Notes under the pieces: generated by a model
What the model saw: the letters and a program-made list of their open reading frames with translations, nothing else
Told to the model about the DNA's origin: nothing
The model's database searches: none
NCBI GenBank assembly: GCA_030390025.1
Contig: CM059426.1
Location: 109,120,001-109,184,000 of the forward strand
DNA: 64,000 nt
Direction: 5' to 3'
DNA from: Squalus acanthias
Taxonomy: Eukaryota
Made by a program: the position numbers and the translations under genes
Shown: in pieces, positions 5,020-55,586 of the stretch
Position numbering within the stretch: the first letter of the stretch is position 1
Layout of the letters: each line of letters starts with the position of its first letter

Positions 5020-5585
5020 TTGGTAACAACTTTGTCTTTGAGTCAGAAAGTCATAGGTTAAAACCCCAGTCAAGGACTTCAGCACCTTATCTAGGCTGAT
5101 ACTCCAGTGCAGTACTGAGGTGTCATTTTATGGATGAGATGTTAAATCGAGGCTCGATCTATCTGTTAAGGTAGATGTAAAAGATCTCAATCTTAGTATT
5201 CAAAGAAGAGAAGGTATTTATCTGTGTCCAACCAACAGCACAGAAGACAGTTTAACTGCTGCTTGATGTGCACCAGTTGATTGCCAGGTGTCCCTACATA
5301 ATGTGGAGATGCCGGTGTTGGACTGGGGTGGACAAATGTGAGAAGTCGCACAACACCAGGTTATAGTCCAACAGTTTTATTTGAAATCACAAGCTTTCGG
5401 AGCAGCGCTCCGAAAGCTTGTGATTTCAAATAAAACTGTTGGACTATAACCTGGTGTTGTGCGACTTCTCACATTTTCCCTACATAATAACAGTGATTGC
5501 ACTTCAAAATACCAATTCATTGCATATGAGAACTTGATGTCCCAGGGATGTGACAAGGTGCTATATAAATGCAAGTTCTTTCATC
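5020..5585 (+). mobile_element. DeuSINE-like SINE interrupted by fold-back copy 1
   Basis: tRNA-like head (agtcagaaagtcataggttaaaacccc), body, and tail ggtgctatataaatgcaagttc. Boundaries approximate. Confidence 0.7.
5303..5476. mobile_element. Penelope-like pLTR-derived fold-back insertion, copy 1 (inside a SINE)
   Basis: Perfect 70-bp inverted arms (5334-5403 / 5407-5476) with a 3-nt loop, a one-sided tail at 5303-5333, and TSD TCCCTACATAAT (5291-5302 and 5477-5488). Confidence 0.85.
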
Positions 5586-9371: not shown

Positions 9372-9523
9372 TGGTATGTTGGCCTTCATTGCAAGAGGAT
9401 TTGAGTACAGGAGCAAGGATGTCTTACTACAGTTATGATGCGGAGATGCCGGTGTTGGACTGGGGTGGACAAAATTGAGAGGTCGCACAACACCAGGTTA
9501 TAGTCCAACAGTTTTATTTGAAA

Positions 9524-9566
9524 TCACAAGCTTTCGGAGCTATCGATTTGCTCCTTCCTCAGGTGA
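9524..9566 (-). ncRNA. Minimal type I hammerhead ribozyme motif (antisense twin)
   Basis: Exact reverse complement of 9588-9630. Confidence 0.78.
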
Positions 9567-9587
9567 AGTAAATTACTTCAATTTACT

Positions 9588-9630
9588 TCACCTGAGGAAG
9601 GAGCAAATCGATAGCTCCGAAAGCTTGTGA
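9588..9630 (+). ncRNA. Minimal type I hammerhead ribozyme motif (Penelope type)
   Basis: UCAC-CUGAGGA-A-GGAGC(AAAUCGAUA)GCUCC-GAA-AGCU-U-GUGA: stem I, conserved core, stem II, palindromic AGCU stem III, CUU cleavage triplet. Confidence 0.8.
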
Positions 9631-9751
9631 TTTCAAATAAAACTGTTGGACTATAACCTGGTGTTGTGCGACCTCTCAATTTTACTACAGTTATACAGGG
9701 CCTTGGTGAGACCACATCTGGAGTACTTTGTGGAGCTTTGGTTTCCTTATC

Positions 9752-9848
9752 ATTGTACCTTTACCTGACGAAGGGGCGACAGCTCCGAAAGCTTGTAATT
9801 TTAAATAAATCTGTTGGACTATAACCTGGTGTTGTGCGACTTCTCATT
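9752..9848 (+). mobile_element. Penelope-like pLTR fragment, one-armed divergent copy (inside CR1 ORF2)
   Basis: Same arm sequence (gctccgaaagcttgtaattttaaataaatctgttggactataacctggtgttgtgcgacttctcat). Apparent short TSD TTATC; interrupts the CR1 codons for FWxPYL. Confidence 0.8.
9761..9798 (+). ncRNA. Minimal type I hammerhead ribozyme motif (covariant)
   Basis: UUAC-CUGACGA-A-GGGGC(GACA)GCUCC-GAA-AGCU-U-GUAA. Stem I has a compensatory C-G to U-A change relative to the other copies. Confidence 0.8.
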
Positions 9849-10905
9849 TTTATCTAAGAAAGGATATACTTGCCATAGAGGGAGTGCAGCGAAGGTTCAC
9901 CAGACTGATTCCTGGGATGGCAGGACTGTCGAGGAGAGATTGGGTCGACTAGGCCTGTATTCACTAGAGTTTAGAAGAATGAGAGGGGATCTCATTGAAA
10001 CGTATAAAATTCTGACACGGCTAGACAGACTGGATGCAGGGAGGATGTTCCCCCTGGCTGGGGAGTCTAGAACGAGGGGTCACAGCCTCAGGCTACGGGG
10101 GTAGGACATTTAGGACTGAGATGAGGAGAAATTTCTTCACTCAGAGGGTGGTGAACCTGTGGAATTCTCTACCACAGAAGGCTGTGGAGGCCAAGTCACT
10201 GAATATATTTAAGAAGGAGATAGATTTCTAGACACAAAAGGCATCAAGGGGTATGGGGAGAGAGCGGGAATATGGTATTGAGATAGAGGATCAGCCATGA
10301 TCATATTGAATGGTGGAGCAGGCTCGAAGGGCCGAATGGCCTACTCCTGCTCCTATGTTTCTATGTTTCAAAGGGATTTACAGTGCAGTGGACAGAGTAG
10401 GTTGTATGCCACAATCTTTCGTAGACTCATCTTTACTTGTGTGTTGTAAGAACAACTGACAAATGGCAGCTGATCGTGGGCTGGGAGACTGTTGAAACAG
10501 GGAGATGTACAAACAGAATAGTCAGCTGTGACTCCTTAGTTTAAACCCTCCCCGAGTGCTGTTGGGGAGGGTTTAAATTAGCTTGGCAGGGGGATGGGCA
10601 CCAGGATGTAGCATTAGAAAGGAGAAACAAGGTGCATAAAGTATTGGGAGAGACAGAGAGCACTAGAGTAAGAAATAGTACGGTATTAAGTGGGGTCAGA
10701 GTAAGAGAGAATACAAGAAGGTCGAAGATAGATTTACAGTGCATGTGTGTAAACGCATGAAGAGTAGTTAGTAAGGTTGGTGAGCTGCAGGTGCAAATAG
10801 CCACATGGGAATATGATGTCGTGGTGATAACAGAAACCTAGCTCAAAAAAGGGCAGGATTGGGTACTAAATATTCCTGGATATAGGGTGTTCAGGAAAGA
10901 TAGGG

Positions 10906-12356: not shown

Positions 12357-14362
12357 GGAAAGAAAGGAGGTGGGGTGGCAGTATTGATTAAGGAGAATAT
12401 TAGTGCTGGAGAGAGGATGTCCTGGAGGGGTCAAGGACAGAATCTATTTTGTTAGAGTTGAGAAACAATAGAGGTGCCATTACACTACTAGGTGTATTCT
12501 ATAGGCCACCAACTAGTGGGAAAGATATAGAGGAGCAAATTTGCAGGGAAATTACAGAGAGGTGCAAGAACTATAGAGTAGTGATAATGGGGGACTTCAA
12601 TTATCCTAATATAGACTGGGATAGTAATAGTGTGAAAGGGCAGAGAGGGGGAAGAATTTCTGAAGTGTGTTCAGGAGAACTTTCTTATCAGTACGTTTCC
12701 GGCCCAACGAGGAAGGAGGTATTGCTGGATCTGGTTCTGGGGAATGAGGTCAACTGGAGCAAGTGTCAGTAGGGGAACATTTAGGGAACAGTGATCATAG
12801 TATCATAAGGTTTAGATTAGCTATGGAAAAGGACGGGGGTAATCTGGAGTAAAAATGCTTAATTGAAGGAAGGCCAATTTCAGTGGGTTGAGAACGGATC
12901 TGGCCCGGGTAAATTGGAATCAATGATTGGCAGGCAAAATTGTAATCTAAGAATGGGCTGCCTTTAAAGAGGAGATGGTTTGGGTACAGTTGAGGTACAT
13001 TCCCACGTGGGGGAAAGGTAGGGCAACCAAAGCCAGAGCTCCCTGGATGACGAAAGAGATAGAGAGTAAGATGAAGCAGAAAAAGGGGGTGTAGAGATGT
13101 CCGGTTGAGAGTATAAGTGAGAACCAGGCTGAATATAGAAAGTTCAGAAAGTGAAAACGAAATGAGGGGCAAAGAGAGAGAGTATGAGAATAGATTGGCA
13201 GCTAACATAAAAGGGAATCCAAAAGTCTTCTATAGCCATATAAATAATAAACTGGTCGTAAGAGGAGGGCTGGGGCTGATTTGGGACCAAAAAGGAGACC
13301 TTCGCATGGAGGCTGAGGTACTAAATGAGTACTTTGCATCTGTCTTTACCAAGGAAGAAGATGCTGCCAAAGTCATAGTGAAAGAGGAGGTAGTTGAGAT
13401 AATGGATTGGATAAAAATTGATTCAGGAGGTACTAGAAAAGCTGGCTGTACTTAAAAGTAGGTAAGTCACCAGGACTGGATGCTGGGGCAGGTAGGGTGG
13501 AAATTGCGGAGGTGCTGGCCATAATCTTCCAATCCTCCTTAGATATGGGGGTGGTGCCAGAGGACTGGAGAATTGCTAATGTTACACCCTTGTTCAAAAA
13601 AGGGTGCAAGGATAAGCCCAGCAACTACAGACCAGTCAGTTTAACCTCGGTAGTGGGGAAACTTTTAGAAATGATAATCAGGGACAAAATTAACAGTCAC
13701 TGAGACAAGTGTGGATTAATTAAGGAAAGCCAGCACAGATTTGTCAAAGGCAAATCGTGTTTAACTAACTTGATTGAGTTATTTGATGAAGTAACAGAGG
13801 GGCTTGATGAGGACAATGCGGTTGATGTGTACATGGACTTCCAAAAGGCGTTTGATAAAGTGTCACATAATAGGCTTGCCAGCAAAGTTGAAGCCCAAGG
13901 AATAAAAGGGACAGTGGCAGCATGGATATGAAATTGGCTAAGTGACAGGAAACGGAGAGTGGTGAACTGGAGAGTGGTGTTCCCCAGGGGTCGGTACTAG
14001 GACCACTGCTTTACTTGATGTATATTAATGACTTGGACTTGGTGTACAGGGTGCAGATGACACAAAACTTGGAAATATAGTGAACAGTGAGGAGGATAGC
14101 GATAGACTTCAAGAGGACCTAGACAGGCTGGTGGAATGGGCGGACACCTGGCAGATGAAATTTAACGCAGAAAAGTGCGAAGTGATACATTTTGGTAGGA
14201 AGAACGAGGAGAGGCAATATAAACTAAAGGGTACAATTCTAAAGGGGGTGCATGAATAGAGAGACCTGGGGGTATATGTGCACAAATCGTTGAAGGTGGC
14301 AGGGCAGGTTGCGAAAGCGGTTAAAAAAAGCATATGGGACTCTGGGCTTCATAAATAGAGGT

Positions 14363-14557
14363 CATGATGCGGAGATGCCGGTGTTGGACTGGGGTGGACA
14401 AAAATGAGAAGTCGCACAACACCAGGTTATAGTCCAACAGTTTTATTTGAAATCACAAGCTTTCGGAGCTTCACCTGAGGAAGGAGCAGCGCTCCGAAAG
14501 CTTGTGATTTCAAATAAAACTGTTGGACTATAATCTGGTGTTGTGCGACTTCTCATT
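14363..14557. mobile_element. Penelope-like pLTR-derived fold-back insertion, copy 3 (inside CR1 ORF2)
   Basis: 69-bp arms (14401-14469 / 14491-14559, one mismatch), 21-nt spacer, TSD TTCATAAATAGAGGT (14348-14362 and 14558-14572). Confidence 0.88.
14471..14507 (+). ncRNA. Minimal type I hammerhead ribozyme motif
   Basis: UCAC-CUGAGGA-A-GGAGC(AGC)GCUCC-GAA-AGCU-U-GUGA. Confidence 0.8.
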
Positions 14558-17084
14558 TTCATAAATAGAGGTATAGACTACAAAAGCAAGGAAGTTATGA
14601 TGAACCTTTTATAAAACACTGGTTCAGCCTCAACTGGAGTATTGTGTCCAATTCTGGGCGCCACACTTTAGGAAGGATGTGAAGGCCTTAGAGAAGGTGC
14701 AGAAAAGATTTACGAGAATGGTTCCAGGGATGAGGGACTTCAGTTACGTGGATAGACTGGAGAAGCTGGGGTTGTTCTCCTTAGAGAAGAGAAGGTTGGG
14801 AGGTGATTTGATAGAGGTGTTCAAAATCATGAGGGGTATAGATAGAGAGAAACTGTTCCCTTTGGCGGAAAGGTCGAGAACCAGAGGAGACAGATTTAAG
14901 TTGATTGGCAGAAGAACCAAATGGCGACATGAGGAAAAACATTTTTACGCAGCGAGTGGTTATGATCTGGAATGCGCTGCCTGAAAGGGTGGTGGAGACA
15001 GATTCAATCGTGGCTTTCAAAAAGGAATTGGATAAGTACCTGAAGGAAAAAAATTTGCAGGGTTATGGGGAAAGGGCAGGCGAGTGGGACCAGCTGAAGT
15101 GCTCTTGCAGAGAGCTGGCATGGGTTCGACGGGCCGAATGGCCTCCTGTGCTGTAATCATTCTATGATTCCTGTTGGGTACTATGATCAGTTCATTGGGG
15201 CAAATCGATTTTCACTGTGTTCAAGAGAAAAATATCACCCATTTAGTCACTGTATAAGTCAAATTCTATCTAAGTTCCAGAATGATGTGTTTATGCAAGA
15301 AGTAAATCAACTGGACACAACATATTTACAGTTGACTGCTTGTGCATTTTATAGTCGATGTCTCAGGTGCAAATATTGTGTATCCTATTAATGCATAGTC
15401 ATAATATTAAGTACATCCCCAGGAGTGGGGAAGTAAAAATCTAATCAAGGCAAATCCTGACAAACTTTTGATGACAGAATATGAAAATATTTAAAGGGGG
15501 CTTTACCATGGCTGTGGTGAATGCTGCAATAGAAATTTAATGGTTTACTGGTGGCGCAAAGGCCTCGTTGCCCAACTAGTATAATTACCAAACCAAAGCT
15601 TCACAAAAGAATATTTGTGCTGTACAATTTAAAACATGTTGCTACTCCATGAGAATGAACCTCTCATTGTTTCTAAACTTAACACTTTTCTGGGTGCAAA
15701 CCTAACTGATGTGCCCTTTTAAATTGCCTTTTAAGATAGTGCAGACTGTGAATTCCCCCACTATACCACAGTCATTCTTCTGTGTTTTGAACTCACTTAA
15801 AGTTGTTATTACAAGGGTTATAAATCAAGAAAAGATTAAAGAACCAAACACACAGGGTGGTCTGATAGGTTAAGTGGCCGAGCAGGGTCACAGGAGAAAT
15901 TTTTAAGAGAATAAATTGCTTATGTCTGAAAGATACTGTGGAACATTTTAGTATTCTAGGTAACACTTCTTGCTTTCAAAAGGTTTGATAAAGTCCTTTG
16001 CTTTATACTTGATTTACATCTCCATTGCTCTACCACCAGAATTTTTTTGAAAGCTGACACAATCTGTATCTGTTTTATGCTAACATGTTTGTAATTCAAA
16101 ACCTTTCTTTTACCAATTTTGTCCCATTCCATGCATCTTCCTCCCAAATTTAATGAATTCTGCTCCAATATTTCCCACTGAGATTATGGAAATGAAAAAA
16201 AAAATCTAACTTAAAATAAATTATATGTTTAAAAACTAATAACCTGTGTTTTGCTAATGGAATGTACACTGGGGATCTATGTTTAATGGAGCATAAGCTA
16301 TTCATGTCATGGCTGACGTAAATCCCAAGCACCAATTGTGTACTGGACTCCATTCTTGAGATGTATTTTCAGAGGAGGTTTGATCAAGAATACTGCTATT
16401 TCAAATGTATTTGTTTGCTTTATGTACATAAAAGGCATATAATGCAAAAACAAAAGTCAATATTTTGAGTTGGAAATTAATTCCACAAAAATCTCCTTGA
16501 AGTGCTGTACAGTATACGCTATGTACACGTTGGAACACGTTTTTAAACAAACCTTTCCTATTATTTGCCTCTGGGCACTTCTAAAACTTGTAGTTTTAGA
16601 TCTTGGGCTCGTGAGTTTTGTCTATTTTAAGCAGGATTTTTACATCCTCCAAGACATTTTACAGCTTCAAGTTACAGGAAGAGGATTGGGTTACAGACCC
16701 TCTTGTCTTTTAGACTTAAAAATTTTCACTGGTTCACAGTCAACAAAGTAAATAGTGTACTGAACAGAAGTTAGTTCCAAATTTTAAATATTTTGACAGT
16801 CTGCATGTTTGAAATGTACCAAAATGTATGTATAAAATGTGGTTAGTTTTGTTTTAATAACATGAAAAACAAAATCTAATTATTGTGGCACTTGGGTAAT
16901 TATAGGAAATACTTATTTTAAAGTGCTTAGTTATAGGACATTTGCAGACAGAGAGTGGCAACATCCAGAATTAATGCATATGTGTTTTGTCTACCCTGGG
17001 TTACTGGCTGCACTGTTTGATCTGACTATTTGATGTGTCTTGTTCCTCCCAGACTAATCTCTCTTCTGTCTGAATGTATTCTGT

Positions 17085-17247: not shown

Positions 17248-18241
17248 GGCTCGGATTTTGTGATCGCCGGCGTAACGAATGATTGCGCTACCAGCATCCG
17301 AACCGAATGCGCACTTAATTGCTGGGAACTCTCCACCAAGAAGCTGCTATCAGACGCTGCGGAGTAGAGGGCAGCGTAGTGGCCCACGGGTCCCAGGGTG
17401 CACTGTGTGTGGAAGCTTACCTGGAATCACGTGGGCCGGTGCTCGAATCAGCAAACTGAAGGTGTCTCATTAATACTATTAGAGATCGTAGGGCTATTCC
17501 CCATTTAATCTTTAGTACTTCAAAAATATACTTACATTTGTGATTTTGGGGTCTGTGGTGTTTAAAAAAAGAAGTATGGATAGCTCGAAATTGTGGTGCT
17601 ACTTTGCTTTTTAAAAAAGAACCGATTCAGAGCAAGTTACATTTCCAATAATTTAGATTGAAAATCACCACTACACTTCTGGGTTACACACAACCAAGTG
17701 TTCTCCAGTTAGAATGCTTCCATCCAGAGAAGACTGACCCCAGACCTGCTGCGAGTAGGGCTGAAGAAGTTTTCTCTCTGCAAAGCAAAATTTGAAGTGT
17801 GGCTTTCTTACAGTCTCTGGGAACTATGCCCAGTCTTCCATAATATGCATTTCAGAATCGTCTATTTATTTTTTTCATGTACAAATTGGAAAGCTATTTT
17901 CACCACTTCGTATTACTGTTTAACCTTTCTAATTAAAGGAGTGCAATTTCTTAATTATCTTGTCAGGAGCTATCCCCTTACACTTTGCAAACAGGCTCTG
18001 TGCCTGTTTGCACCAGCCGTAAAATTTTCATACGTAATTACTGGTCAGTTGGTGGGCAGTTAGCCCAACACTGCGCCAGCAATTAGGATTTCAATGTCGG
18101 TGCGGATCATTTGTCAAGACGGAACTTGACATCGCAAGTTTGGGATCTAGCGCATGCGGAAATCCCAAACTTGCTGTCCATTTCAAAGGCGGTATGACGG
18201 CGTACTCAGTACGCCGTCATACCGACCGCATATTCTGGCCC
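17248..18241. mobile_element. Non-autonomous DNA transposon (probably Harbinger-derived), old
   Basis: CpG-rich ends with imperfect TIRs (ggctcggattttgtg / cgcatattctggcc). Terminal segments resemble 52139-52920. Confidence 0.5.
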
Positions 18242-28776: not shown

Positions 28777-28950
28777 GAACTTTCAACTTTGGGGGTGTAA
28801 AATAGGCGATATCGGATCGGTGGTACGTTTATAAACCCATCCGATTTTCATTTCCATTGACTTCACGGAGTGGAAAATCGGGAGGAGGGATGTATAATGG
28901 GCGGCCAATCTCGTATTGCCCATTTTACGCCCCAACAAAGTTGAAAGTTC
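28777..28950. mobile_element. Palindromic MITE
   Basis: Perfect 14-bp TIR GAACTTTCAACTTT / AAAGTTGAAAGTTC plus internal symmetry (ccgattttc / gaaaatcgg). Confidence 0.75.
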
Positions 28951-29794: not shown

Positions 29795-30448
29795 ACTTTG
29801 GTTGCTAACGGGGCGCAAAGCAACTAGCGCCTGGGCGCAGTGCCGCTGCCAACGCCTCCCGCGAAATTCAGCGGGAGGTTAGCGGCAGCGGTAACCGTTA
29901 GCGCCCCGCGGCACTGCGCCGCCAGCGATGACGCTATCGCCGTGCGCAGCGCCCTGCTCACGCCCCGGCCGCGATCTTCGGTAGCGCCCCCTGATTTATC
30001 GCCGGATGCTATGTCCGACAGGGTCAGGGGGGCCTATCTGCGGCTGGGGCGGTGTAAATTAAAGAGACGGTGGCGGACGGCCATTTTTGTTGCTGGCTGC
30101 CTGGCAGCACCTGCCCCCGTTGCTGTCCCCGGCCTCCTGTGAAGCCCCCCCCCCCCCGCGGGGTGCCGGCTGCGTTCCGTGAGCCCGGCACTTCTCTTGA
30201 GTGCCGGGCTCTTTTGCCGGCACTCCGATCCCTGGTGGCCCAGCTGGGCCCCGGGTCGCGCTGCGCAAGGCCCCCCCCCCCCTTTAATAAGGGGAGGAAG
30301 GCCTGCTGTACCGCGGCGCGACGTGCTGCGATATTCACTCGCAGCGCCCCAAGAGGGAGGTGGGGCGCTTCCAGTAGTGCCCCGCTACCCTCTTGGGGCA
30401 CTACCGGTGAATTTCGGGCGCGGGGGCACGACCCAATTTTTCCCCCCC
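29795..30448. mobile_element. GC/CpG-rich non-autonomous DNA transposon (Harbinger-like), left end truncated
   Basis: Right end CCCAATTTTTCCCCCCC resembles the TIR of 50372-51261; shares ggggcgc/agcgcccc motifs. Confidence 0.6.
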
Positions 30449-32110: not shown

Positions 32111-32517
32111 GAAATTGTTGCTTGTTGGAAAATAACTGCTAACAGTACTGATAGTGGCGAACGCATTAGCTTATTAATTGTCTTCATAACTGGTGTGGTG
32201 GTCAGAGTCTCGTCGGACACAGGCTCAATTCCCCTGAGCTTTGGATCTCAGCTGCCTTGCTGAAGAGGGTTCAAGCATCATCGCATAGAGGAAGGGGAGA
32301 ATCTGATGGGAATCCACATCAGCATGCTCCTGGTTGCCTCTTGGCAGCTGACCAGTGATGGAGCTGTGCGCTATGGGAGAGGAGAATCCAAAAAAGGAGA
32401 GAAAGATGATGTATGGGTGTGTGCCTTCATAAGATTAGACACTCTGCAAAAAGGAAAAAAGCCTCTCCTATTACATAAATTCACTGATATAACCTGGTGG
32501 ATTATTTTTTCTTGCAG

Positions 32518-32589
32518 GGATTTATCCAACAACAGGATAGGCTGTCTAAATGGGGAAATGTTCAGAGGCTTATCAAATCTTGTCCGATT
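32518..32589 (+). CDS. ADGRA3: ADGRA3 coding exon (LRR)
   Basis: 72-nt exon, cttgcag|...|gtaagt. Encodes DLSNNRIGCLNGEMFRGLSNLVRL; in phase with the previous exon (CT+G=Leu). Confidence 0.95.
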
Positions 32590-32690
32590 GTAAGTGATCA
32601 GTTTAAATCTATTCACATTTTAATTTAAAAATGGTATATAATTTGACTTTATTTTGATCCTGACATTCTATATATTTTGTTAATTTAATT

Positions 32691-33663
32691 ACATAGAATA
32701 TACAGCCCAGAAACAGGCCATTCGGCCCAACCAATCCATGCCGGCGTTTATGCTCCACTCGAGCTTTCTCCCATCCTGCCTCATCTAACTCGATCAGCAT
32801 TACCCTCTATTCCCTTCTCCCTCATATGCTTATCTAGCTTCCCCTTAAATGCATCTATACTATTTGCCTCAACTGCCCCCTATGGTAGTAAGTTCTACAT
32901 TCTCACCACTCTCTGGGTAAAGAAGTTTCTCCTGAATTCCCCATTTGATTTCTTGGTGACTATCTTATATTGATGGCCTCTAGTTTTGCTCTTCCCCACA
33001 AGTGGAAACATTCTCTCTGTATCTACTTTATTAAAACTTTCATAATTTTAAAGACCTCTATATAAGGTCAGCCCTCAGCCTTCTCTTTTCAAGAGAAAAG
33101 AGACCCAGGCTATTCATCCTTTCCTGATAGATATAACCTCGCAGTTCTGGCATCAGCTTTGTAAATCTTCTCTCCAGTGCCTCTATATCCTTTTTATAAT
33201 ATGGCGACCAGGATTGTACGCAGTACTCCAAGTGTGGTCTAACCAAGGTTCAATACAAGTTTAACACAAATTCTCAACTTTTCAATTCTATCCCTCTAGA
33301 AATAAACTCTAATGCTTGGTTTTCTTTTGATATGGCCTTATTGACCTGCGTTGCAACTTTGTGATTTTTGTATTTGTACTCCCAGATCCCTTTGCTCTTC
33401 TACCCCATTTAGATTCTTATTTTCCAAGTAATATGTGACCTCCTTATTTTTCTTATCAAAATGTAATACCTCACACTTATCTATGTTGAAATTCATTTGC
33501 CAATTATATGCCCATTCTGCAAGTTTATTAATGTCTTGTAATTTGTCGCAATCCTCGGTGTTGACTATCCCTCCCAATTTGGTGTCGTCCGCAAATTTAG
33601 AAATTGTGTTTTTGATTCCAAAGTCTAAATCGCTAATATAAATTGTGAACAACAGTGGTCCCA
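32691..33663 (-). mobile_element. CR1 LINE, 5'-truncated
   Basis: Encodes [33 protein letters not shown]; has a CR1 3' UTR. Confidence 0.9.
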
Positions 33664-33716
33664 CTGTTGATGAAACAAGACAGTTAATTTTTTTGAACTG
33701 ATTTTCTTTTTTCCAG

Positions 33717-33788
33717 AAACCTTTCAGGAAACCTGTTTTCGACACTGTCACAAGGGACATTTAAGAACCTTCTGTCACTGAAATACAT
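33717..33788 (+). CDS. ADGRA3: ADGRA3 coding exon (LRR)
   Basis: 72-nt exon, ttccag|...|gtaagt. Encodes NLSGNLFSTLSQGTFKNLLSLKYI; phase consistent (TT+A=Leu). Confidence 0.95.
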
Positions 33789-34211
33789 GTAAGTGATGTA
33801 CTGAGTTTACTTCTTTCTTTGCTGCTTCTCACTTTCTCAAAGTTGTATCTATATTTATTTTCCACTCACTGTAAAATTTAAATCCTGACGTAACAAGAAT
33901 CACATATGCGGTAGCCTTTGGTTGATTCTATTTAATATGTTTCTCCCTGAAACATTTATTGTTAACCCATGTACTTATTTTACATTCCAGAGAGAAAAGT
34001 AATGGTTAAATTGAAGTGTTAATTTATAATTAGCTATATTAAATTCATGTTGAATAATTTTGTGCAATTGATGTACAAAGTTACTAAATAATGAGATGCA
34101 TATATGCTTTGTGTTCTGCCACTTGCTACACAGAGCAAGGAAAAATTAACTGCTTTACATTTTTAAAAAAACAATATGTATCCCATAGTGGTAAATAGGG
34201 AATTAAACCAT

Positions 34212-34370
34212 GGGGTAGAATTTCCGTGGGGGTTCTCCTGATCTACCGCTGTAACCTTGGTAGATGATGAGCGGAATCCCCAAAGAAATGGCGGTTTAAC
34301 GTCATTTCTCCGAGACTTCCACCTGCGTTACGGTGGGAGATTGGGAGATGCCTTGTGGAAATCTACCCCC
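34212..34370. mobile_element. Short palindromic MITE (Harbinger-like G-rich TIR)
   Basis: GGGGTAGAATTTCC / GGAAATCTACCCC termini with imperfect internal symmetry. Confidence 0.65.
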
Positions 34371-35868
34371 CCTGTATATACCAAAGGTCAGGGACTGTGT
34401 TCCATACTTGGCAGTGAAGGAATTAATAGAAAAATAAGGATTCTGTCTTTAAACTGTTTAAATATATTTCCCCTCCAGTAATAGAGTATTGACTGATACA
34501 GGGAAGGACAGAATCTTTACCTTGCATGAGAAAAAATAACTGATGACAAAAGATGGGGTTAAAGGGTATGAAAAGCCAACAGGGCCCTCTTAACAAATTC
34601 CACTTTAACTATTGCTTTAGCTACTAAATTACATGTTGTGAAGGTCACAGACATGAGAGAATTTCTATTGCTATCCGAGTTATACAATGATTTCTTGGTT
34701 GATGCGCTCTGCCAATACATAGAATATACTATATTTAAAACCTTGATACAAATGGAATATGATATTTCTTCATACAAGAGCAATAAATTGTCAGTGACGC
34801 CCACATTCCGTGAATGAATAAAGAAAGAAAAAGAGCAATTTGAATAGGAAGCTCTAAAAGTGAAATTGTTCCTCATTCGTTTCAGGATGTGTGCATTGAA
34901 AGTGCTGTAAGTCAACCTAATGTTGAACTGTTTTAGAAAAATAGCTAATTTTTGCTTTTCTAATTTTGTGCTAGTTTCTTGTTTTTCTTTTGTACATTAG
35001 CCAGTCACTTACCTTGGCCTCTGTGTGCCACACAGCAATTGTGGTGCAGAATGCAGGCAGGTGAACTACTCCTATGCTTCTGTCTGTTCCTCTGTTTCAA
35101 CCACTTGAAATTACATGAAAGTGCCCTGGGCGTGATTCCCACAATGTATTTTCCTCCCATGTAAATAACAAAGCAGCTGGTCTCTGTTCAACACCTCCCC
35201 ATGCTGACAGTGCAAAGAACAGCAAGTCAACGGTGTGGGGCATTATGGAAACAACCTACATCCCATCCTATGCTCACGGTCTGACGCATTGCACCACCTA
35301 TATTACGGAATATTTGCAATTGGCTATTTTATCGAATAAAAACTTGCTGTTGATTTAATGACTGTCAAATAGTTCTTGCAGGTATTTTGACAAAGTGTGT
35401 GTACATGAGCAAGATCCAAATGTCATGGTTTCATTAAAATCACAGGTCATATAAAAGGTTCTTACACAGTAAATAATGTTTGATTTCTTTAAGTTTGCAA
35501 ATTGTCACAATTTCCACACAAGTTATGTGAATTTTAAAATGTAGTTTTATTTTATTGTTGACTTGAATATATTTCAGTTACTATTTACATAACACAAAAT
35601 GTATTTTTATTGGCTTTATCTAATTTTTACAAAATTACATAAAATCGCTAATTTCAGGCAATGAAATTGGGAAAATATCACAAATTACACTTAGAAAACT
35701 TTGATAAACACAAAATTAATTTAAGTGCCATCAAACATGTTTTAGGTGCCTTTTATCGATAGCATGATCTCTGGTTTTGTAACTTAAGAGTATGTTGAGA
35801 GAGCACCTTTTGTAAATTAAAAGCTATTTGAAAACATTGTTTTTAATTTTTAATTTTGTCATTGTTAG

Positions 35869-36029
35869 AGAATTTCAGACGGACTATCTTCTGTGTGATT
35901 GCAACTTGCTTTGGATGATTCAGTGGATAAAGACTCAAAATATAACAGTACGAGAAACTAAATGTGCCTTCCCAAAGTCTCTGCAAAGTCAGCTTGTGAT
36001 GAGTGTGAAGCAAGAACTTCTGACTTGTG
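35869..36029 (+). CDS. ADGRA3: ADGRA3 coding exon (LRRCT cap)
   Basis: 161-nt exon, gttag|...|gtaaga. Encodes EFQTDYLLCDCNLLWMIQWIKTQNITVRETKCAFPKSLQSQLVMSVKQELLTC, with the CxC...C...C LRRCT cysteines. Confidence 0.95.
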
Positions 36030-38370
36030 GTAAGAATTCAAGATTAAGCTTTATATCGTGTACTAGTAGTCTTAATGTAACTCTTCACTGAGTAATAAGG
36101 CAATTATAGGAGGGAAGAAGTCTTACTTTACCAAACTTGGAACAACTAATTATTAAATCATTAGGAATCACATTAATTAAGGTAAGTTTGGTTAATTCCA
36201 ACATTATGTTTCCCCAATAAAGCAAATCAATACGTTCTAGCTCTAAAACTTGGGCTACCATGGAACTAATGTTAAGGAATAATAAATTAAACCTCTTGCA
36301 TAATAGTTTATCCAGTTAAATATACCTTTTATGCATACTCATAGGAATATTCTGTTTTAAATGACATGTAATTGAGCAAAGCATCATTTTTATATACACA
36401 CAAGCTATGATATTCTCCATTATCCATTTAAATACATTCCAATATTACTTTTTGTCAAATTGCGATTTATTTGTGGGGGCCTGCTGTCCACCACGACCCC
36501 ACCCCTTGGCCAGCAAAAAAAAATTCAACAGATAAGAGCTGCTTATTTGTGATATTTATTTTAGCAGCTCTTGTGTTGTCATGACCGTGTTTGTTAAAAG
36601 GGGTTTCTGAGCAGTACAAAGTACTTGGCAACACTTGGTGTGTTCTCCATTAATACTAATATAAGCAATACCAAATGTCCATGACATCACAACAATTTCA
36701 AACTCCCATGCAAAAATTGGCTGGCTGCAGCTCCTTGCTCTCTGCATTCTAGTCATCTGGTGCAGTGCCTGGCCTGATCTGCTCCTACGCTGCCCATTCT
36801 GCTTTCAGCCTCTGATCTCTGTTGCTGTCTGCTCTCTGAAGGCACAAAGATACTTTTTGAACTTCCCGGGTCTAAAGGATAGGTAAAGGCTGCTCCCTGA
36901 TTGGTCTAGATCCACCAATGAGGAAGTCGTCTCTTCTAGTCCTCCATGCCCCAGAGGTTCAAAAGGCTGACGCCAATACCAAAAGAAAGTTATGTGCACC
37001 AACAAGAAATAACTGACGCTTTAGTGCCTGGACAATGGCTCATGGGCCATGTCTTGGTCACCTAACACTAGAGGCTAGGCACTGGAGCAGGTCATGGTTT
37101 ATCCCTTAAGGTATATTACCTAGTGGGTGAAGACAGCACTGTGAGCACTATACTAAGAAGTTGCACATTCTACCTCAATCTCTGAGGGATTGTTAATTAT
37201 ATTGAGCAAGGAGTTGGACCAGTTATGTTCCTGAAGCTAAACTATAGAGAAATGTTAATGTTACTTAGGAGCAGCACAGTCACGAATGGACTGCACTCAA
37301 GGCATCTGAAAATCCAACTTGTATGAGGTATATGGAGATCTTTAACTGAGCACTGGCTGAGGTGACATGGAGATATTGCTCATTCTGCAGATGTTGTTAC
37401 GATGCGTCTGCAATTCACATTCTTCAGATGGCTTGCTTTCATTAATGATGGTGCTATTCTTTAGTAAGATTTATATTCCTTCAGTTGCAGCTCCCATTAG
37501 TACATTGCAGTATACAATAAAGCACCAAACTTGTTTTACCCTCCTCCCAAATCTAATTTCAGAAAAGTTCTCTGATGCTGAGATTGGGAGAATGTGGAAA
37601 GTAGCACAACAGCTGAGATTGCTAGGCATTAACATGCCACTCAGTTCTTACCTTTGCTGTTGCATTCCTGTCCGTGTGCAAAGGCTGCAGTTACAAGCAA
37701 TAACTGCCTGAGGCCATTCAAAAATTCTGACTTCTGTTCTTGACAGAATTGGGAAAATAACATGTATAAGAAAAATACATTGTATAATGCATGGAAATCA
37801 CTTTTAGGGATGTGGAGGCGCGGGGGTGTCACACAATAAGAGACATAAATATGTTTCCTGTCGAAATCCTGAACACCGATACAGAAAATTTATTTTCTTA
37901 TGGGCTTCAGTGACTGAGTTATTGCCATTACATGTGGAGTGAAACTTATTTATGAGAATCAAAAATACTTCGTCTTTTCAGCTAAAATGCACCTAAAAAT
38001 TAATTTTCCTATAATTGCACTGTTCATAGTCATAATGGCACAGAAGGAGGCCATTCAAATCAATGATATTGTAGATTTTCTTTTGATTTTTCAGTTATCT
38101 ATTAAATTCTTTTTTTTCTCAAACTTTGTTTAAGTTACAGTTCCTATACATTAATAGTCTCAAATTCGTGATGATAGAACACATGTCCTACTGAGTTTCA
38201 ACTCAGTATTTATAGATTCAGGTCCTATGGTTCCAAGTCACTTACGAAATTGAGCACACAATTGTTTTGTGCATTTGATTTTGCATTTTATAAATGTGTC
38301 ATTATTGTATTCTGTAAGCTAACTGAAGTCAATAGGTTTCATTTTTAACATATCTTCGTCGTTATTGCAG

Positions 38371-38584
38371 ATGCTCCTCTCGAGCTGCCGTCCTTTCAGC
38401 TGACCCCTTCCCATCGTCAGGTGGTGTTTGAGGGAGACAGTCTCCCTTTCCAGTGTATGGCTTCTTACATTGACCAGGACATGCAAGTGCTGTGGTATCA
38501 GGATGGAAAGATGGTGGAAACTGATGAGTCCCAAGGAATTTTTGTTGAAAAAAATGTGATCCATAATTGTTCCTTAATTGCAAG
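38371..38584 (+). CDS. ADGRA3: ADGRA3 coding exon (Ig-like domain, first half)
   Basis: 214-nt exon, ttgcag|...|gtaata. Encodes DAPLELPSFQLTPSHRQVVFEGDSLPFQCMASYIDQDMQVLWYQDGKMVETDESQGIFVEKNVIHNCSLIAS. Not called in the supplied ORF track; read by hand. Confidence 0.95.
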
Positions 38585-39397
38585 GTAATAAATTAACTTG
38601 CGTAATTTACATCTTGGAATTCAGAGTAAGAGTGTTTCTTTTTTGAATATGTATCATCTTAATCATGGATAAATGTTTTTTTCCTATATATGAAGTAGAT
38701 CTTCAACACTAAAACATTTTATTCATAAAACATGCATCTCTTGGTTTTATGAAGATCAGTTTAGTATTTTTTTTTAAATGATCGTCTTTCCAGTCCACTT
38801 CATTGAGTTATTACATTTCAGGACACACCTAAAACCTGGCTATGATGCCATGCACACTGTGCTTAGCATAGATTTTGTACCATTCGTAAATCTCCAAATA
38901 TTTGCTCAAAAGCAGAAGACTTTATAAATGCAGAAGATATGGTTTTACTAGATTGCAATACTCAATGTTATTTCAGGTCTCCATGAAAGTGTCCTTTTAA
39001 TTGCGGATTAATTGCCAGGAATTCAGTATTATATTTGGACTCCTGCAAACATTTAGTGCATAACACTGGATTTTCAGAAAAGTATAAATTTTGTGCTCAA
39101 TGGGTTAAGATCCTTAAAGATTTTGTGCTGCTTCAAAGTTATAATCTCTATTTTCAGTGAGTTTCACATTTAAAAAAAAATACTGTTTAGCATTTAATAA
39201 CTGTTCAAAGCTATTCAAACTGAACCATTTCAAAATTGAGTTCATGGTTATTGAACTTCGTATGCTTGCATGTCTTGTAGCTGTGGATATTTAAAGTAAG
39301 ATGATGTATTCTGTTTTTCAAAGTGCAATTTTGTCCAAACTTGAGTATTCCTTCCTGTGTTTCTGTTGAATGGTAATGTAACTGTTTCTAAATGCAG

Positions 39398-39562
39398 TAC
39401 TCTAACTATCTCAAATATCCAAATGGGTTCCACTGGAAACTGGGAATGTCAAGTCCAAACCAAACGTGGAAACAACACAAAACAAGTTGACATAGTTGTC
39501 TTGGAGAGCTCAGCAAAGTACTGCCCACCGGAGATGGTGATGAATAACAAAGGGGATTTCAG
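39398..39562 (+). CDS. ADGRA3: ADGRA3 coding exon (Ig-like domain, second half)
   Basis: 165-nt exon, atgcag|...|gtaatg. Encodes TLTISNIQMGSTGNWECQVQTKRGNNTKQVDIVVLESSAKYCPPEMVMNNKGDFR. Confidence 0.95.
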
Positions 39563-40659
39563 GTAATGAGCTTTCACAAAAAAAACTTCATCATGAAAGA
39601 CTGGCAGCAAGTTTCATATCTGTGGTGGTGTCCTTTTCTCAGCAGACTTATTGTCTAGAACTAAAGTGCTTTCTTTATAACTAGACATAATGTAGCTCAT
39701 CACACTACTGATTACAGTTAATGAGTTTGTAATGATAGAGTTGCTGACTGCAAGGCATTATTGAGATACACTGTATATTTGAAAACTAGCCTCAGAATAT
39801 GTGTGACCTTTACTAAAAATTAATTTCAACAAAAACTATTATGTTAATGTGCACAGGGGTTTGGGGAATTTGAGCAGCTGATGCTTGAAGATAGTGAAAG
39901 CAATGTGTAGTTATTCTATAGTAACTTGGTTAAGTTGAAGATCATTTTTCTTCTGGGCACATTTAATTGGTTATCTAAATGACCAATAAGTACTAAGTTT
40001 CTAAATATACATAGATAATGGCAGTAAAGAAGATAGGACGATAGTTATTCTCTGATACTGCAATGGTGTAATGCTCTTGGGTTACAGAACAGAACTTTGT
40101 TTTGAGTTCGTAGAACTCTCGCCTTTGTCAGAAGATTGTGGGTTCAAGCCCTACTTCAGGACTTGAGCACGTAATTTGGATTGATACTTGTTTAGTACTG
40201 AAGGAGTGCTGTATTATGTTCAGGAGTTCTCCCATACTGCACAGTACCTAATTATACAATAACGTGAGCTGGGTTGTAACAATAGGGCCCCCTTTTGAGC
40301 TGAACTGCATATCTTATTATTGCATGTGCCTTGCATGCTTAGCCAATCTTCTGGTGGAATTGATAATTACTCTGGTGAGCAGAAGTTAATGTTAAATCAG
40401 GACGCTTTAATTTTGCATAATACACATGATTGAACAAAATAGTAATTCCAGATTTTAACTTCTATAATGATTCCTGTAATATGTAAAGCAATAACAATGT
40501 GCTGTGTTAACCCAAATGATGAGCATAATGCTCACTTTTGAGTTTTTGTTTATTACTGGTCAACCACTAGCTGTAAAAGCTGATTGGCTGTACTTCAATT
40601 TCCAGCCTCTGCCTCTCCAGAGCTTAGGGGCGAGAGGGCAGAAGGTACGGCTGCGAATG

Positions 40660-40950
40660 GTGCGGCAAACAAAGTGGGGGAATGCATGAGGTCAGAGTTG
40701 GAGGAATGCAGAATTCAGAGGTTTGCAGGGCTGGAGGATTTTAAAGGTAGGGAGGGGTGAGGCCATGGACGGATTTGAACATAAGGGTGAGGATTTTAAA
40801 TTTGAGGCGTTGGTGGACTGGGAGCCAATGTAGGTCAGCGAGTAAAGGAATGACGGGTGAACGGAACTTGGTGGGAGTTGGGATATGGGCATCAGAGTTT
40901 TGGATGAGCTCAAGTTTATGGAGGGTGGAAGATGGGAGGCCCCCATGGAA
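40660..40950 (-). mobile_element. L2 3' fragment
   Basis: Reverse complement of the segment seen at 6360-6610. Confidence 0.75.
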
Positions 40951-42228
40951 TAAGCTGCGATTGTCATAAATGGTGTATCCTCTGAATCATGAGCAATGCT
41001 ACAAGAGAGCTACTAATAAATATTTACCGCTCTTGCAGATATAACTATTCTAAGTTCCAGTAGCTGAGCCATACAAACTAGAAATTTCCTGTGTTCAATA
41101 TTTTGTTCATGCTGAATTAGTACATCTCGCCCATGTAGGTAAAAGGGACCATAGGGCACATGATGCCTGTGTTACTGCACACCAGTAAGGAGAGGAAAGA
41201 AAATGAGTGAAGAAAAAGAAAAGCTCCAATTTCCTAAGCAGGCCCAATCTGTGAAATTCTGCTCTGGTTTCCACATAATGAGACCTTCCTTTTAGGCTGT
41301 AACTTTTGAAGCTGTTAAAGTACCAGCTCCAGTATTAGACTCACTGTAAAAGTCTGCACAAGATCCACCCCCCCCCCCCGGCCCCCCTCACTCCCTGGAG
41401 TATGGGTACATTTCACTGTTATTTTAAACGGTTGTCTACACTGTACACTGTGATGTGTAGACATGTTCCCAAAATGTTAGAAAATGCAGTGCTAGTCCTT
41501 ATGCAGCTAAAGAGTATGTTAGACTGTGGTATATTTATTCACTCCTCTCCCATTCATTCTATTTGTGCTGTTTTCCTTATAATTTCTGATCTGTATTTTT
41601 GAATTCTTATTTTTGCTGCTTCTAGAGTAGCAATTTTTCCTCTGATTCCCTCCCTCAACAAAGACTATATACCAAATGATTTTGTGTGATAGCATTTAGA
41701 GTTGGTCATCGGTTACAGAATTTCAAAAGCATGGATGATGTTGGGTTGTAAAGTCCTATGTAGCTTCCAATTTGTAAAGGGTGAGATTTAATTTAGCCCG
41801 GCTATAGTGTACATTGTTATGAGCGCCACAGTACTTAAACTATGACATTATTTTGTATTTTCATAAATATGTAATATTGCACAATGTTAGGATTAAGATG
41901 CTGAACTGATTGCTTTTATATTTCTTCAGCTATAGACATATCAGTACCAGCCAGTTTAATAATTCAATTCTAGTGTAATGCTGTAGTAACTTTCCACTAT
42001 TTTCTTTAGAGTTCTATAGGTGAAGGAGTCGTGAGTATTTTTTCCAATTTGAAGAGCTTTCAACAAATATTCAAAATTATCATAGACCAGATAGGTTTAG
42101 AACTGTTAACCCCGATAGTTGATTTAAAATAAATTCTTGTTTTTTGTTTGTTATGAAAACTTAGCTTAAATTTCTGTTTTGAGCTTAATTTTGAGTAAAT
42201 TGAATAGAAGAATTTTCTTACTTTCCAG

Positions 42229-42430
42229 GTGGCCTCGTACACTGGCCGGCATCACTGCCTACCTGCTGTGTACCCGTTACTCTGCAGGCACCGGTATATA
42301 CCCTGGTGGCTCTCAGGATGAAAAGAAAGCTTGGCGCAAGTGTGACCGAGGAGGATTTTGGTCCGATGACAACTATTCTCGATGTCAGTATGCAAATGAT
42401 GTTACACGGGTGCTTTACATGTTTAACCAG
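42229..42430 (+). CDS. ADGRA3: ADGRA3 coding exon (hormone-binding/HRM domain)
   Basis: 202-nt exon, ttccag|...|gtacat. Encodes WPRTLAGITAYLLCTRYSAGTGIYPGGSQDEKKAWRKCDRGGFWSDDNYSRCQYANDVTRVLYMFNQ, with the WPxT...C...C...G.W...C HRM motif. Confidence 0.95.
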
Positions 42431-43149
42431 GTACATAACGAGTGCTCGCTTGTATTAGACAAATTTTCTCATGCTGTATAAATATACAAGCTTAAATTTA
42501 TATAGTAAATTCACTTAGAAAATAAATGTAAAGATGGTATTCACTTAAAGTAATACAGCAATGCACATTGTGATACGCAAGATACTTTTTTGTAGTTGAG
42601 CAGCAGTTTGTCATTGCTAAGCTCCACTTATTGCATGTTGTAGATTGTGTGTCAGCATGACTCTGCGGGAATTTATTAAATCTCTTGTTCCAAAGGTTGT
42701 GGGTTTAGATACCACACCAGGACCTGAGCGCATAATCCAGACCTCCGCCAATACCACCAAAAATGCATTTTGTTGATGTTTGCGAGAATGGCAGTGACAT
42801 TTGCTTGCACAGCAATCCCTGCACCACAATAGTTCATTGTGCAAACCACTTAAAGATATTCTGGCAACAGAGTAAGGCACTGTATAAATGCAAGAACTTC
42901 TTTTAGAATGCGCAATAAATCTGTGAGATGAGGTGCAATTAATTCTTGGAACTTTTTTCCTGATGTATTCTTTTTAGTGTCGTTAACACAGCACTTTTCA
43001 GTTTTCTGGTTTGAGTGTTTTTACATTATGGGTGGTGAATACAATATAAAAGGTAAATTAAAGGAGTTTATGCAAAATCTTTACGAATTGTTTATCTGGG
43101 TTAGTCCATTGGCTACAATAAACTTTCTGGTACTGAGTCTTACATCAGT

Positions 43150-45156: not shown

Positions 45157-46740
45157 GGCCGCGATTTTCCCTGGGTCGGTGGTGGGTCGCGGCCCCACCC
45201 CTGTCTCCATCCCGGCCTCCACCATGACTTTCCCCTAATGGGGCTTGTTAAGCCCGCCCAGCGAGTTTCCCGGGCCAATTGATGGAAGCGGGTCTGATGA
45301 TGTGATTTGATGACACTTCATCAGTCGGTTTCCTTAAAGGGGCCATGCGCAAATTTACTTTGACATTTGTGCTGTCAGTGTTCCACAGCATTGAGGTGCC
45401 GCAAACACTGACAATGACTGCACAGAGGTGCACGGCTGCACCCAGGCTCTCCAATGACTCTCTCCATATGCTTATGGAGGGAGTAACAGCACAAAGGGAG
45501 GTTCTCTTTCCTTCCAATGGGCGGAAGAGACCTCCCCAGGATACCAACGCAGCCTGGTTGCACATTGCACAGGAGGGCACAACCAGGGATGTCGTCAGGA
45601 GGACCAGGCTGCAGTGGCGCAAACCTTTCAATGATCTCAGTAGATCACGAAACGTTACTGCAAAGCCACACTCATCACATCCCCATCACTCTGCCTTCCC
45701 TACCCTACTCCTGCACATCCTTACTCACACCAACTTACCTTGCACCTCCACCCATCCCCCTCTATCTACGTTATCACTTCCCTTACTATCCACCCCTCAC
45801 ACTCACCCTCATCCTAGTCCAGTCATACCAACTAACAACACACAAGGATAGGTTTTAGTCAATGTTCATGTGAAGTTTCTGTTAATGTGGTGTAAAACAT
45901 TGAAATCTTTATTTTCAACACTTTGCATTCGTGGTCAGATTTGTGTGCACCTTTGGAAGTGGCTTAGTGAGTTGCAGTGAATGGTGAAACATAACGGTCC
46001 CCGTCCCCCCCCCCCCCCCCCCCCGCAATGCTGATGAATGTGAAAGGAATGGTTTGGGCATTGTAGGGATGCTTTATATTGTTGGTGTGGGGTGGTGTCA
46101 ACCTGACGCATCATGTGGCAGCCAGGGTGTGCAGTGTCAAATGAAGTAAATGTGGCCATGGTGAGGCAATGTGGTTGGGTATTGATGCCCTCTGTCCTGT
46201 GCAGCACCAGGTGATTGTGGAGAAGGTTGGTGTGCCTAGTGATGCTGGTGTTGGGGCTGATGGTGGTCAGATTCTGAGGACCAAGGTGAGAGAGTATAAA
46301 GTGCACCATGCCGATGTAATAGATGGCAGGTGAAGTAGAGATGACAGAAGCAATCTGTCAATGGTGGGAGAGGTAATGAGGTCAGACTGGATGGAGACTT
46401 TTGTAAAGACTTGTAGCACTCTGAATCTGTAGTGGAAATGCAGTTTAGAGAAGCTAGTGGTTAAGGGAACATTTCTCAATCAGCTAGGAGCTTTGACTTG
46501 ATATTTGAAGCTGTCAACTCAACAGCTGATGCAATAGCAAGTGACCTCCTGCCTCAGCTTCACAGACAAGGTCTAGACACAACGGGAAACTGGTGGGTGA
46601 CATTTCAAATTGAGAAAGCTGGGGGGAAAAAAAGCATTGTTAAGTGGCTGTAAACAAGCCGTAATGGTTTGAATTGGATCCCCACCGCTGCCTGTCGGGT
46701 CTGCTCGGTGCTGGCAGACCCGACATTGGGAAATGCAGGA
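45157..46740. mobile_element. Internally deleted PIF/Harbinger transposon (Myb/SANT gene on +, transposase remnant on -)
   Basis: + strand APRLSNDSLHMLMEGV...VLFP...AAWLHIA...RTRLQWRKPFNDL is a Myb/SANT trihelix pattern. The convergent segment is homologous to 56830-57407. Ends approximate. Confidence 0.72.
45414..45650 (+). pseudogene. Harbinger Myb/SANT-like DNA-binding domain remnant
   Basis: Within ORF 45345-45851. W...RT..Q.RK.FNDL spacing of the MSANTD/trihelix family. Confidence 0.75.
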
Positions 46741-55327: not shown

Positions 55328-55465
55328 AAAAGCAAAATACTGCGGATGCTGGAAATCTGAAATAAAAACAGAAAATGCTGGAAATACTCAGCAGGTCAGG
55401 CAGCAACTGTGGAGAGAGAGAAACAGAGTTAACGTTTCAGGTCAATGACCTTTCGTCAGAACTGA
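55328..55465 (-). mobile_element. Second Penelope-like family, terminal pLTR fragment
   Basis: Minus strand reads cagttctgacgaaaggtcattgacctgaaacgttaactctg...ccagcatccgcagtattttgctttt. Begins with a hammerhead core; sequence unrelated to the fold-back family. Confidence 0.75.
55427..55463 (-). ncRNA. Minimal type I hammerhead ribozyme motif (second family)
   Basis: AGUU-CUGACGA-A-AGGUC(AUU)GACCU-GAA-ACGU-U-AACU: palindromic ACGU stem III and GUU cleavage triplet. Confidence 0.78.
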
Positions 55466-55586
55466 AAGTATTTGCTTTTCAAGAAAATAGAAATTCTGGA
55501 TGGATTCCATTTGTCCAATAAAGAGGCTTAACTTAGTGACGTCGTTGGCTGTGAAGCGCTTTGGGATGTCCTGAGGACGTGAAAGG

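Follow-up and report, generated by a model that had tools for sequence, protein, structure and literature searches.

Very probable Penelope-derived palindromic insertions with predicted hammerhead motifs, clustered in CR1 ORF2 within one Squalus acanthias window

Introduction

Penelope-like elements (PLEs) comprise copies in which an inverted, 5′-truncated copy is accompanied by a tail of 30–40 bp, often at one end only (PMC8557442), and those of Adineta have inverted pLTRs, a 31-bp tail, target-site duplications (TSDs) of 8–10 bp and head-to-head palindromes (PMC3846280). Non-autonomous PLE derivatives also exist, while the origin of the tandem and inverted structures and of the tail is regarded as an open question (PMC8557442). 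In vitro, both target strands are nicked and extended by the anole PLE protein, a predicted dimer that favours uncleaved RNA and begins reverse transcription (RT) at two sites, one on either side of the tail; the later steps of PLE insertion are left unvalidated (PMC11167929). The window analysed here is a stretch of 64,000 nucleotides of Squalus acanthias DNA (contig CM059426.1, positions 109,120,001–109,184,000 of the forward strand), which is repeat-rich vertebrate DNA.

Structure of the insertions

Four insertions had been predicted in the window from its sequence, S1 (5303–5476), S2 (9437–9681), S3 (14363–14557) and S4 (61539–61750), and all of them are borne out at these coordinates, with exact TSDs and head-to-head arms in the layout TSD – tail – arm – centre – arm – TSD. 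A fifth copy, S5 (9752–9849), had been overlooked; it is single-armed and tail-less, has a 5-bp TSD and differs from the other copies at 3–6 of 66 nt. No sixth copy of the family is found in the 64-kb window. The features of the five copies are as follows, strands being given where one is assigned.

5291–5302 and 5477–5488: S1 left and right TSD, 12 bp, exact duplication
5303–5333: S1 tail
5334–5403 and 5407–5476: S1 arms
5291–5488: S1 with its TSDs; arms joined through helix II with a 5-nt overlap, without a complete hammerhead core; the element lies in a plus-strand SINE-like repeat
9424–9436: S2 left TSD, 13 bp; the empty site restores the CR1 frame
9437–9472, minus strand: S2 3′ tail, 36 nt, on the left arm only
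9473–9574, minus strand: S2 left arm, antisense copy, with a predicted minimal hammerhead at 9524–9566
9575–9579: S2 unpaired centre, 5 nt, either upstream unit sequence or a stuttered fold-back
9580–9681, plus strand: S2 right arm, tail-less, with a predicted minimal hammerhead at 9588–9630 (loop II of 9 nt)
9682–9694: S2 right TSD, 13 bp, exact duplication
9747–9751 and 9850–9854: S5 TSD
9752–9849, plus strand: S5, single-arm tail-less copy
9761–9798: S5 predicted hammerhead with a compensatory helix I pair
14348–14362 and 14558–14572: S3 TSD, 15 bp, exact duplication
14363–14402: S3 tail, followed by the left arm to 14469
14469–14557: S3 right arm
14471–14507, plus strand: S3 right-arm predicted hammerhead
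61527–61538 and 61751–61762: S4 TSD, 12 bp, exact duplication
61539–61581: S4 tail, followed by the left arm to 61672
61630–61667, minus strand: S4 left-arm predicted hammerhead
61672–61750: S4 right arm

The TSD length of 12–15 bp given in the original prediction applies to S1–S4 (12, 13, 15 and 12 bp), but the range becomes 5–15 bp once S5 is included. Likewise, the tail is one-sided as had been stated, consisting of extra 3′ bases on the left arm only, but its length is 31, 36, 40 and 43 nt in S1–S4, respectively, instead of 31–41 nt. The paired arms of S1–S4 span 70, 104, 69 and 81 bp with a single mismatch in 324 pairs, which belongs to S3. A flanking 12-mer is repeated by chance in 7 of 20,000 random 200-nt segments. 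All family copies in the window are short, the palindromic ones measuring 174–245 bp.

When the element and one TSD are removed, the CR1 ORF2 frame is uninterrupted at S2, S3, S4 and S5, and these copies are therefore true insertions rather than assembly palindromes. Four insertion-free CR1 paralogues span the same segment without duplication, one of them beginning only at position 381 of the common CR1 ORF2 axis. Palindromic structures of this kind do trouble assemblies (PMC8557442), but an assembly or read artefact (palindromic chimeras) is hardly credible here, since the TSDs are exact and specific to each site, the empty sites recover the CR1 frame, the tail is asymmetric, no two centres agree and the arms of S3 contain one mismatch.

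These insertions share with miniature inverted-repeat transposable elements (MITEs) or fold-back DNA transposons their short length, the lack of an ORF and long inverted repeats between duplications, and the original prediction had warned of confusion with MITEs. Such an identity, with the hammerhead likeness arising by chance, is extremely improbable, as TSD length varies (5, 12, 12, 13 and 15 bp), the tail makes the two ends asymmetric, the hammerhead topology occurs at 6 loci against 0.01 expected, and no transposase hit is obtained among the 226 window ORFs of at least 68 aa. Unlike those of MITEs and other TIR transposons, the inverted repeats do not reach both termini, and it is on the variable TSD (5–15 bp) and the one-sided tail that the MITE reading fails. 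Copies of this type will nevertheless be mis-called as MITEs or as microRNA hairpins, sub-threshold microRNA matches having been returned by Rfam.

Predicted hammerhead motif

The CUGANGA...GAAA cores expected in the arms are complete in four of the eight (both arms of S2, the right arm of S3 and the left arm of S4), but absent in complete form from S1. The loose core pattern alone is a weak criterion, with 18 matches in the window against 6 expected, whereas the full minimal-hammerhead topology is found at 6 loci, compared with 0.01 per window in 100 shuffles. Five of these loci belong to the family (S2 both arms, S3 right, S4 left and S5), the sixth being an unrelated one at 55459. Helix I of the motif has 4 bp, and A9 is followed by an additional base; the motif further comprises the pair G10.1–C11.1, a helix II of 5 bp, a loop II of 3–9 nt and a two-base palindrome (15.2–16.2) in place of helix III, and is flanked by U-rich sequence upstream and AU-rich sequence downstream. 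The PLE ribozyme consensus in PMC4209133 (Fig. S3) lists these same features of minimal type I hammerheads, so that the predicted minimal type I hammerhead of this family matches that consensus in full. Its helix I is identical to that of the lamprey PLE, GAAA is followed by the same four bases as in the turtle entry, and U at position 17 is also present in several PLE-linked entries of Fig. S3, while no entry from a cartilaginous fish is found in the available part of the Fig. S3 file (PMC4209133). Pairs of hammerheads on opposite strands lie 100–700 bp apart in Schistosoma (PMC4209133), whereas the cores here are closer, about 30 nt apart in S2, or are partly deleted at the junction.

The helix cells are paired in 32 of 32 cases, with one compensatory and two G–U changes, but the covariation is not significant (equalled in 120 of 500 shuffles, with only 4 distinct rows). 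Folding energies are no better than those of shuffled sequences, with weak z-scores from −1.55 to +0.09. In the predicted folds the tail pairs with the arm over 9 bp (z from −1.0 to −1.55 for three arm-plus-tail fragments); these folds were viewed against the RT start inside an AC-rich stem-loop that is a feature of EN+ PLEs. Covariation and folding energies alone thus do not support the RNA structures. Scanning with Rfam gives no hammerhead at E ≤ 1 and 5 matches, all below the gathering score, four of which are microRNA models reflecting the perfect hairpins.

A second minimal hammerhead, unrelated to the family, is predicted at 55427–55463 (minus strand) within a single-armed unit at about 55330–55470 that has no other copy in the window. 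This unit is probably another PLE 3′ end.

Relationship to Penelope-like elements

The Penelope-like character proposed for the insertions is well supported by their anatomy, namely a minimal hammerhead, an inverted truncated copy, a one-sided tail and a variable TSD, while the link to an RT/GIY-YIG ORF that would complete it is not found in the window. An inverted 5′-truncated copy in head-to-head orientation is present in four of the five copies, S5 being single-armed; the 30–40 bp tail on one end has its counterpart in all four palindromic copies (31, 36, 40 and 43 nt); TSD length and 5′ truncation both vary (TSDs of 12, 13, 15, 12 and 5 bp, with differing inner ends); and a hammerhead near the 3′ end is predicted at the five family loci of the topology scan (0.01 expected). 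Judged by this non-coding anatomy, the insertions are very probably derived from a PLE, and formal membership of the group is likely. They share with EN+ PLEs (PMC8557442, Fig. 2), including Pen2/Pen2a of Adineta (PMC3846280), a head-to-head inverted copy, a TSD of variable length, a tail of 30–40 bp confined to one end and a hammerhead, here a predicted one, close to the 3′ end, but differ in that both halves are only about 70–140 nt long and contain no ORF. The TSDs of S1–S4 (12–15 bp) are also longer than the 8–10 bp of Adineta (PMC3846280). As this architecture has already been published for PLEs, the insertions, their possible target preference aside, are a clean example of a known pattern.

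No GIY-YIG, transposase or PLE-specific family is detected by Pfam among the 226 window ORFs of at least 68 aa, a threshold that shorter or more decayed pieces would escape; the same ORFs yield RT, AP endonuclease and host-gene domains, one Myb/SANT, one GDSL and two DUF hits. Word-based searches of longer proteins with the conceptual translations of the unit return 1, 10 and 3 candidates, none of which scored, and this is weak evidence. The single phmmer hit, a repetitive protein of 4,818 aa from Gordionus (a horsehair worm), is a sum of weak repeat matches and is rejected as unrelated. Exact-motif scans of prokaryotic genome contigs give 0 loci each and blastn against plasmid and phage collections gives no match, as expected of a vertebrate repeat.

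One sense frame is open across the arm and tail in all four tailed copies (61540–61629, minus strand, and its equivalents), and in S3 and S4 it ends in an ATG at the tip of the tail. This frame may be the lead-in to the ORF of the parent element. The ORF of Anolis Poseidon PAc starts inside the ribozyme (PMC11167929), whereas the only sense-strand ATG here, a candidate start, is at the end of the tail.

Separate origin of the palindromes

Two origins had been considered in the original prediction, a recurrent truncation product and a non-autonomous ribozyme mini-element. The former is upheld; copying of the latter as a unit is at odds with centres that differ in all four copies and with private arm variants. 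The two arms of one element differ at 0, 0, 1 and 0 of 66 nt (S1–S4), while S1–S4 differ from one another at 1–4 of 66 nt. Loop II also varies between elements, but is common to both arms where both include it (S2 and S4), and the four palindromic copies have four different unpaired centres. Each palindrome therefore arose separately from its own template variant, and the insertions are supported as recurrent products rather than copies of one mini-element, although four copies are few.

It is accordingly quite improbable that the insertions represent a non-autonomous, retrozyme- or SINE-like palindromic mini-element copied whole by a PLE protein in trans. Non-autonomous derivatives of PLEs are known (PMC8557442), and all four copies do have one layout and a length of 174–245 bp, with no longer copy in the window, but a unit copied whole is difficult to reconcile with four centres and four loop II/arm variants in four copies, each variant on both arms of its own element, with the lack of a ribozyme core in S1, or with the existence of a single-arm copy.

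Junctions and putative priming mechanism

All 9 arms run through the predicted ribozyme cut site and stop 5–44 nt upstream of the catalytic GAAA, and the template RNA would therefore have been uncleaved. The outer ends fall into two clusters past the cut site, tail-less ends at 52–57 nt and tailed ends at 88–95 nt, which match the two in vitro RT start sites of the anole PLE (PMC11167929). Primer and template share 2 nt at 6 of the 8 scorable outer junctions (binomial probability 1.8e-5), as read by eye and with the distal junction of S4 left out because it has no longer template; the proximal microhomologies sit in a U-run and could mean a preference in nicking rather than pairing. The inner overlaps of S1–S4 are 5, 0, 1 and 1 nt. 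In polarity, the unpaired centres of S1 and S3 agree with the tail-less arm, and the sequence that continues each target 3′ end is antisense to the ribozyme strand.

It follows from the duplications that both strands were nicked, with 3′ overhangs of 12–15 nt. As fold-back of a tailed cDNA cannot give the centres of S1 and S3, and that of a tail-less cDNA cannot give the tail, the insertions are most simply interpreted as primed from both nicks. A PLE protein, probably a dimer, would nick both target strands 12–15 bp apart, and each 3′-OH would pair over about 2 nt with uncleaved sense RNA and prime RT on it. One cDNA would start at the proximal site, the U-run 52–57 nt past the ribozyme cut site, and the other at the distal site (88–95 nt), which would produce the one-sided tail. 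Synthesis of both cDNAs would end within the 5′ half of the hammerhead or shortly after it, perhaps by run-off where priming occurs near the RNA 5′ end, or by stalling of the RT at helix II. Joining of the two cDNAs inside the ribozyme with an overlap of 0–5 nt, followed by fill-in, would then generate TSD – tail – arm – centre – arm – TSD, while the use of only one nick would leave a single-arm copy such as S5. The parent element would, in addition, prefer a segment of CR1 ORF2 as its target.

In the twin priming of L1, the element RNA is primed by the two target 3′ ends, and the resulting inversion is closed by microhomology, the second priming being internal and non-overlapping. Unlike those of L1, both primings proposed here would copy the same 3′ segment and thus yield a palindrome.

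The published interpretation of head-to-head palindromes with a tail is fold-back followed by trimming (PMC3846280 and PMC8557442), the palindromes being explained in PMC3846280 by self-priming on an antisense template. Applied to the same PLE parent, the palindrome would form by fold-back or self-priming, with an antisense transcript as one conceivable template, into a symmetric hairpin that loses one tail to the endonuclease during integration. The centre of S1, which is exactly the helix II hairpin, the centre of S2, which is readable as a stuttered fold-back, and the same private variants on the arms within one element all agree with such an origin. For S1 and S3, however, whose centres are part of the tail-less arm, one more step, trimming, would have to be assumed; nor does such an origin predict the 2-nt identity at both outer junctions (6 of 8), and the end clusters match two in vitro RT start sites. 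Fold-back is for these reasons considered unlikely.

Priming from both nicks, the preferred interpretation, has its closest counterpart in PAc of Anolis, with its two RT start clusters bracketing the tail, nicking and extension of both strands, use of uncleaved RNA and AT-rich target (PMC11167929). RT start shows no strand difference in PAc, whereas one tailed end is combined with one tail-less end here in four of four copies; neither this pairing nor the joining step is described for PAc in the available part of PMC11167929. Within about 200 bp, each of these near-pristine products preserves the positions of the two nicks, of the two priming sites and of the join, and a genome-wide census could thus separate twin priming from fold-back; the junctions are a usable in vivo test of the priming model. 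Taken as a whole, it is likely that the insertions are recent, short, twin-primed products of a hammerhead-bearing PLE that prefers CR1 ORF2 and whose coding part lies outside the window.

Clustering in CR1 ORF2

Four of the five copies (S2–S5) sit in one polarity within 109 bp of CR1 ORF2, in three CR1 copies, a clustering missed in the original prediction. The host elements are:

9372–10370, plus strand: CR1-type LINE 3′ fragment, host of S2 (axis 414–426) and S5 (axis 479–483)
13553–14885, plus strand: CR1-type LINE ORF2 fragment, host of S3 (axis 375–389)
58877–62278, plus strand: near-complete CR1-type ORF2 (AP endonuclease and RT), host of S4 (axis 390–401)

On the common CR1 ORF2 axis, the TSDs thus follow one another as S3 (375–389), S4 (390–401), S2 (414–426) and S5 (479–483). 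CR1-type LINE sequence makes up about 22% of the window, but the target segment, present in 7 copies, only 760 bp (1.2%). By simulation, four of five insertions fall by chance within 104 bp in 25 of 4,000,000 trials (15 when AT-weighted), and three of four within 39 bp in 172 of 4,000,000 (157 when AT-weighted), the latter test leaving out S5, which shares its host copy with S2. AT-richness as the cause of the clustering is rejected on these AT-weighted values. Given insertion in CR1, the chance is 888 in 1,000,000, and for any repeat family it is 14 in 194,684 (four of five) and 46 in 194,684 (three of four). Against these values it must be set that the clustering was noticed after the fact and in one window, that S2 and S5 share a host, and that S1 lies outside CR1.

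The three host CR1 copies are only 60–76% identical and the insertion sites differ, which argues against one event amplified together with CR1. Inserts are present in 3 of 3 plus-strand copies of the CR1 segment and in 0 of 4 minus-strand copies (0.029); since the five inserts do not differ in polarity, CR1 orientation cannot be told apart from the plus strand of the window or from the direction of the host gene. Comparison of the unit with each empty site ±60 bp gives no homology (p 0.43–1.0), and no sequence motif is common to the sites apart from the overlap of S3 and S4. CR1 ORF2 does contain a look-alike of 8–11 nt of the ribozyme core and the start of helix II (14670 and 61847, plus strand; 11424, 43668 and 47647, minus strand), which lies about 60–110 nt downstream of the S2–S4 sites and adjoins the S5 site. 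This stretch is exact in the hosts of S3 and S4 and in three of the four insertion-free copies, but inexact in the host of S2 and S5, and does not separate hit from unhit CR1 copies, so that it is a lead only.

Known PLE targets include (TA)n, (CA)n and (C)n microsatellites, and 28S rDNA in the case of a spike moss PLE-X (PMC8557442), while another Penelope and a non-LTR element have each been recorded as the target of a single insertion (PMC3846280). The insertions here resemble the target-biased PLEs of PMC8557442 in their non-random target, but are staggered over 109 bp of a coding segment within another retrotransposon instead of falling on one base or in a microsatellite. In a literature search by title or the beginning of the abstract, with most subscription papers outside its scope, nothing on point is found for CR1 preference, PLE twin priming or this family in sharks, and the available part of PMC12602865 contains nothing relevant. 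Of all the features described, the CR1 clustering alone may be new, and it is known from one window.

It is tentatively proposed, as a serious possibility, that a vertebrate PLE homes in fixed orientation to a CR1 ORF2 segment of ~110 bp just downstream of the RT core, with a nick ladder at axis positions 375, 390, 402, 414, 427, 479 and 484, and that CR1 ORF2 is disrupted by the twin-primed mini-palindromes it leaves behind. Homing would possibly be mediated by the CR1 stretch that mimics the PLE's own ribozyme core. Such a preference, if true throughout the genome, would represent a new kind of PLE target and a defined GIY-YIG substrate, and one retroelement would be inactivating another; in that event, the paired nicks and paired RT starts used by the PLE in vivo could be read from a large natural data set in the genome.

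Other features of the window

Exons with LRR, Ig, Ig and HRM domains follow in this order at 32264–42478 (plus strand), a layout suggestive of an ADGRA-type adhesion GPCR gene across much of the window. The CR1 element at 58877–62278 (plus strand) contains a GDSL-like esterase piece in addition to AP endonuclease and RT, and is broken by frameshifts and by S4. A Myb/SANT-like frame is located at 45306–45851 (plus strand), and a repeat occurs in two inverted copies (46019–46515 and 56764–57292); both are possibly remnants of Harbinger-type transposons. An old imperfect palindrome of about 175 bp (28777–28950; 68% identity), unrelated to the family, is MITE-like in its long terminal inverted repeats. 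Further short palindromes are identified by self-comparison at 18190–18224, 10537–10580 and 30329–30416, the last of which lies in a GC-rich stretch.
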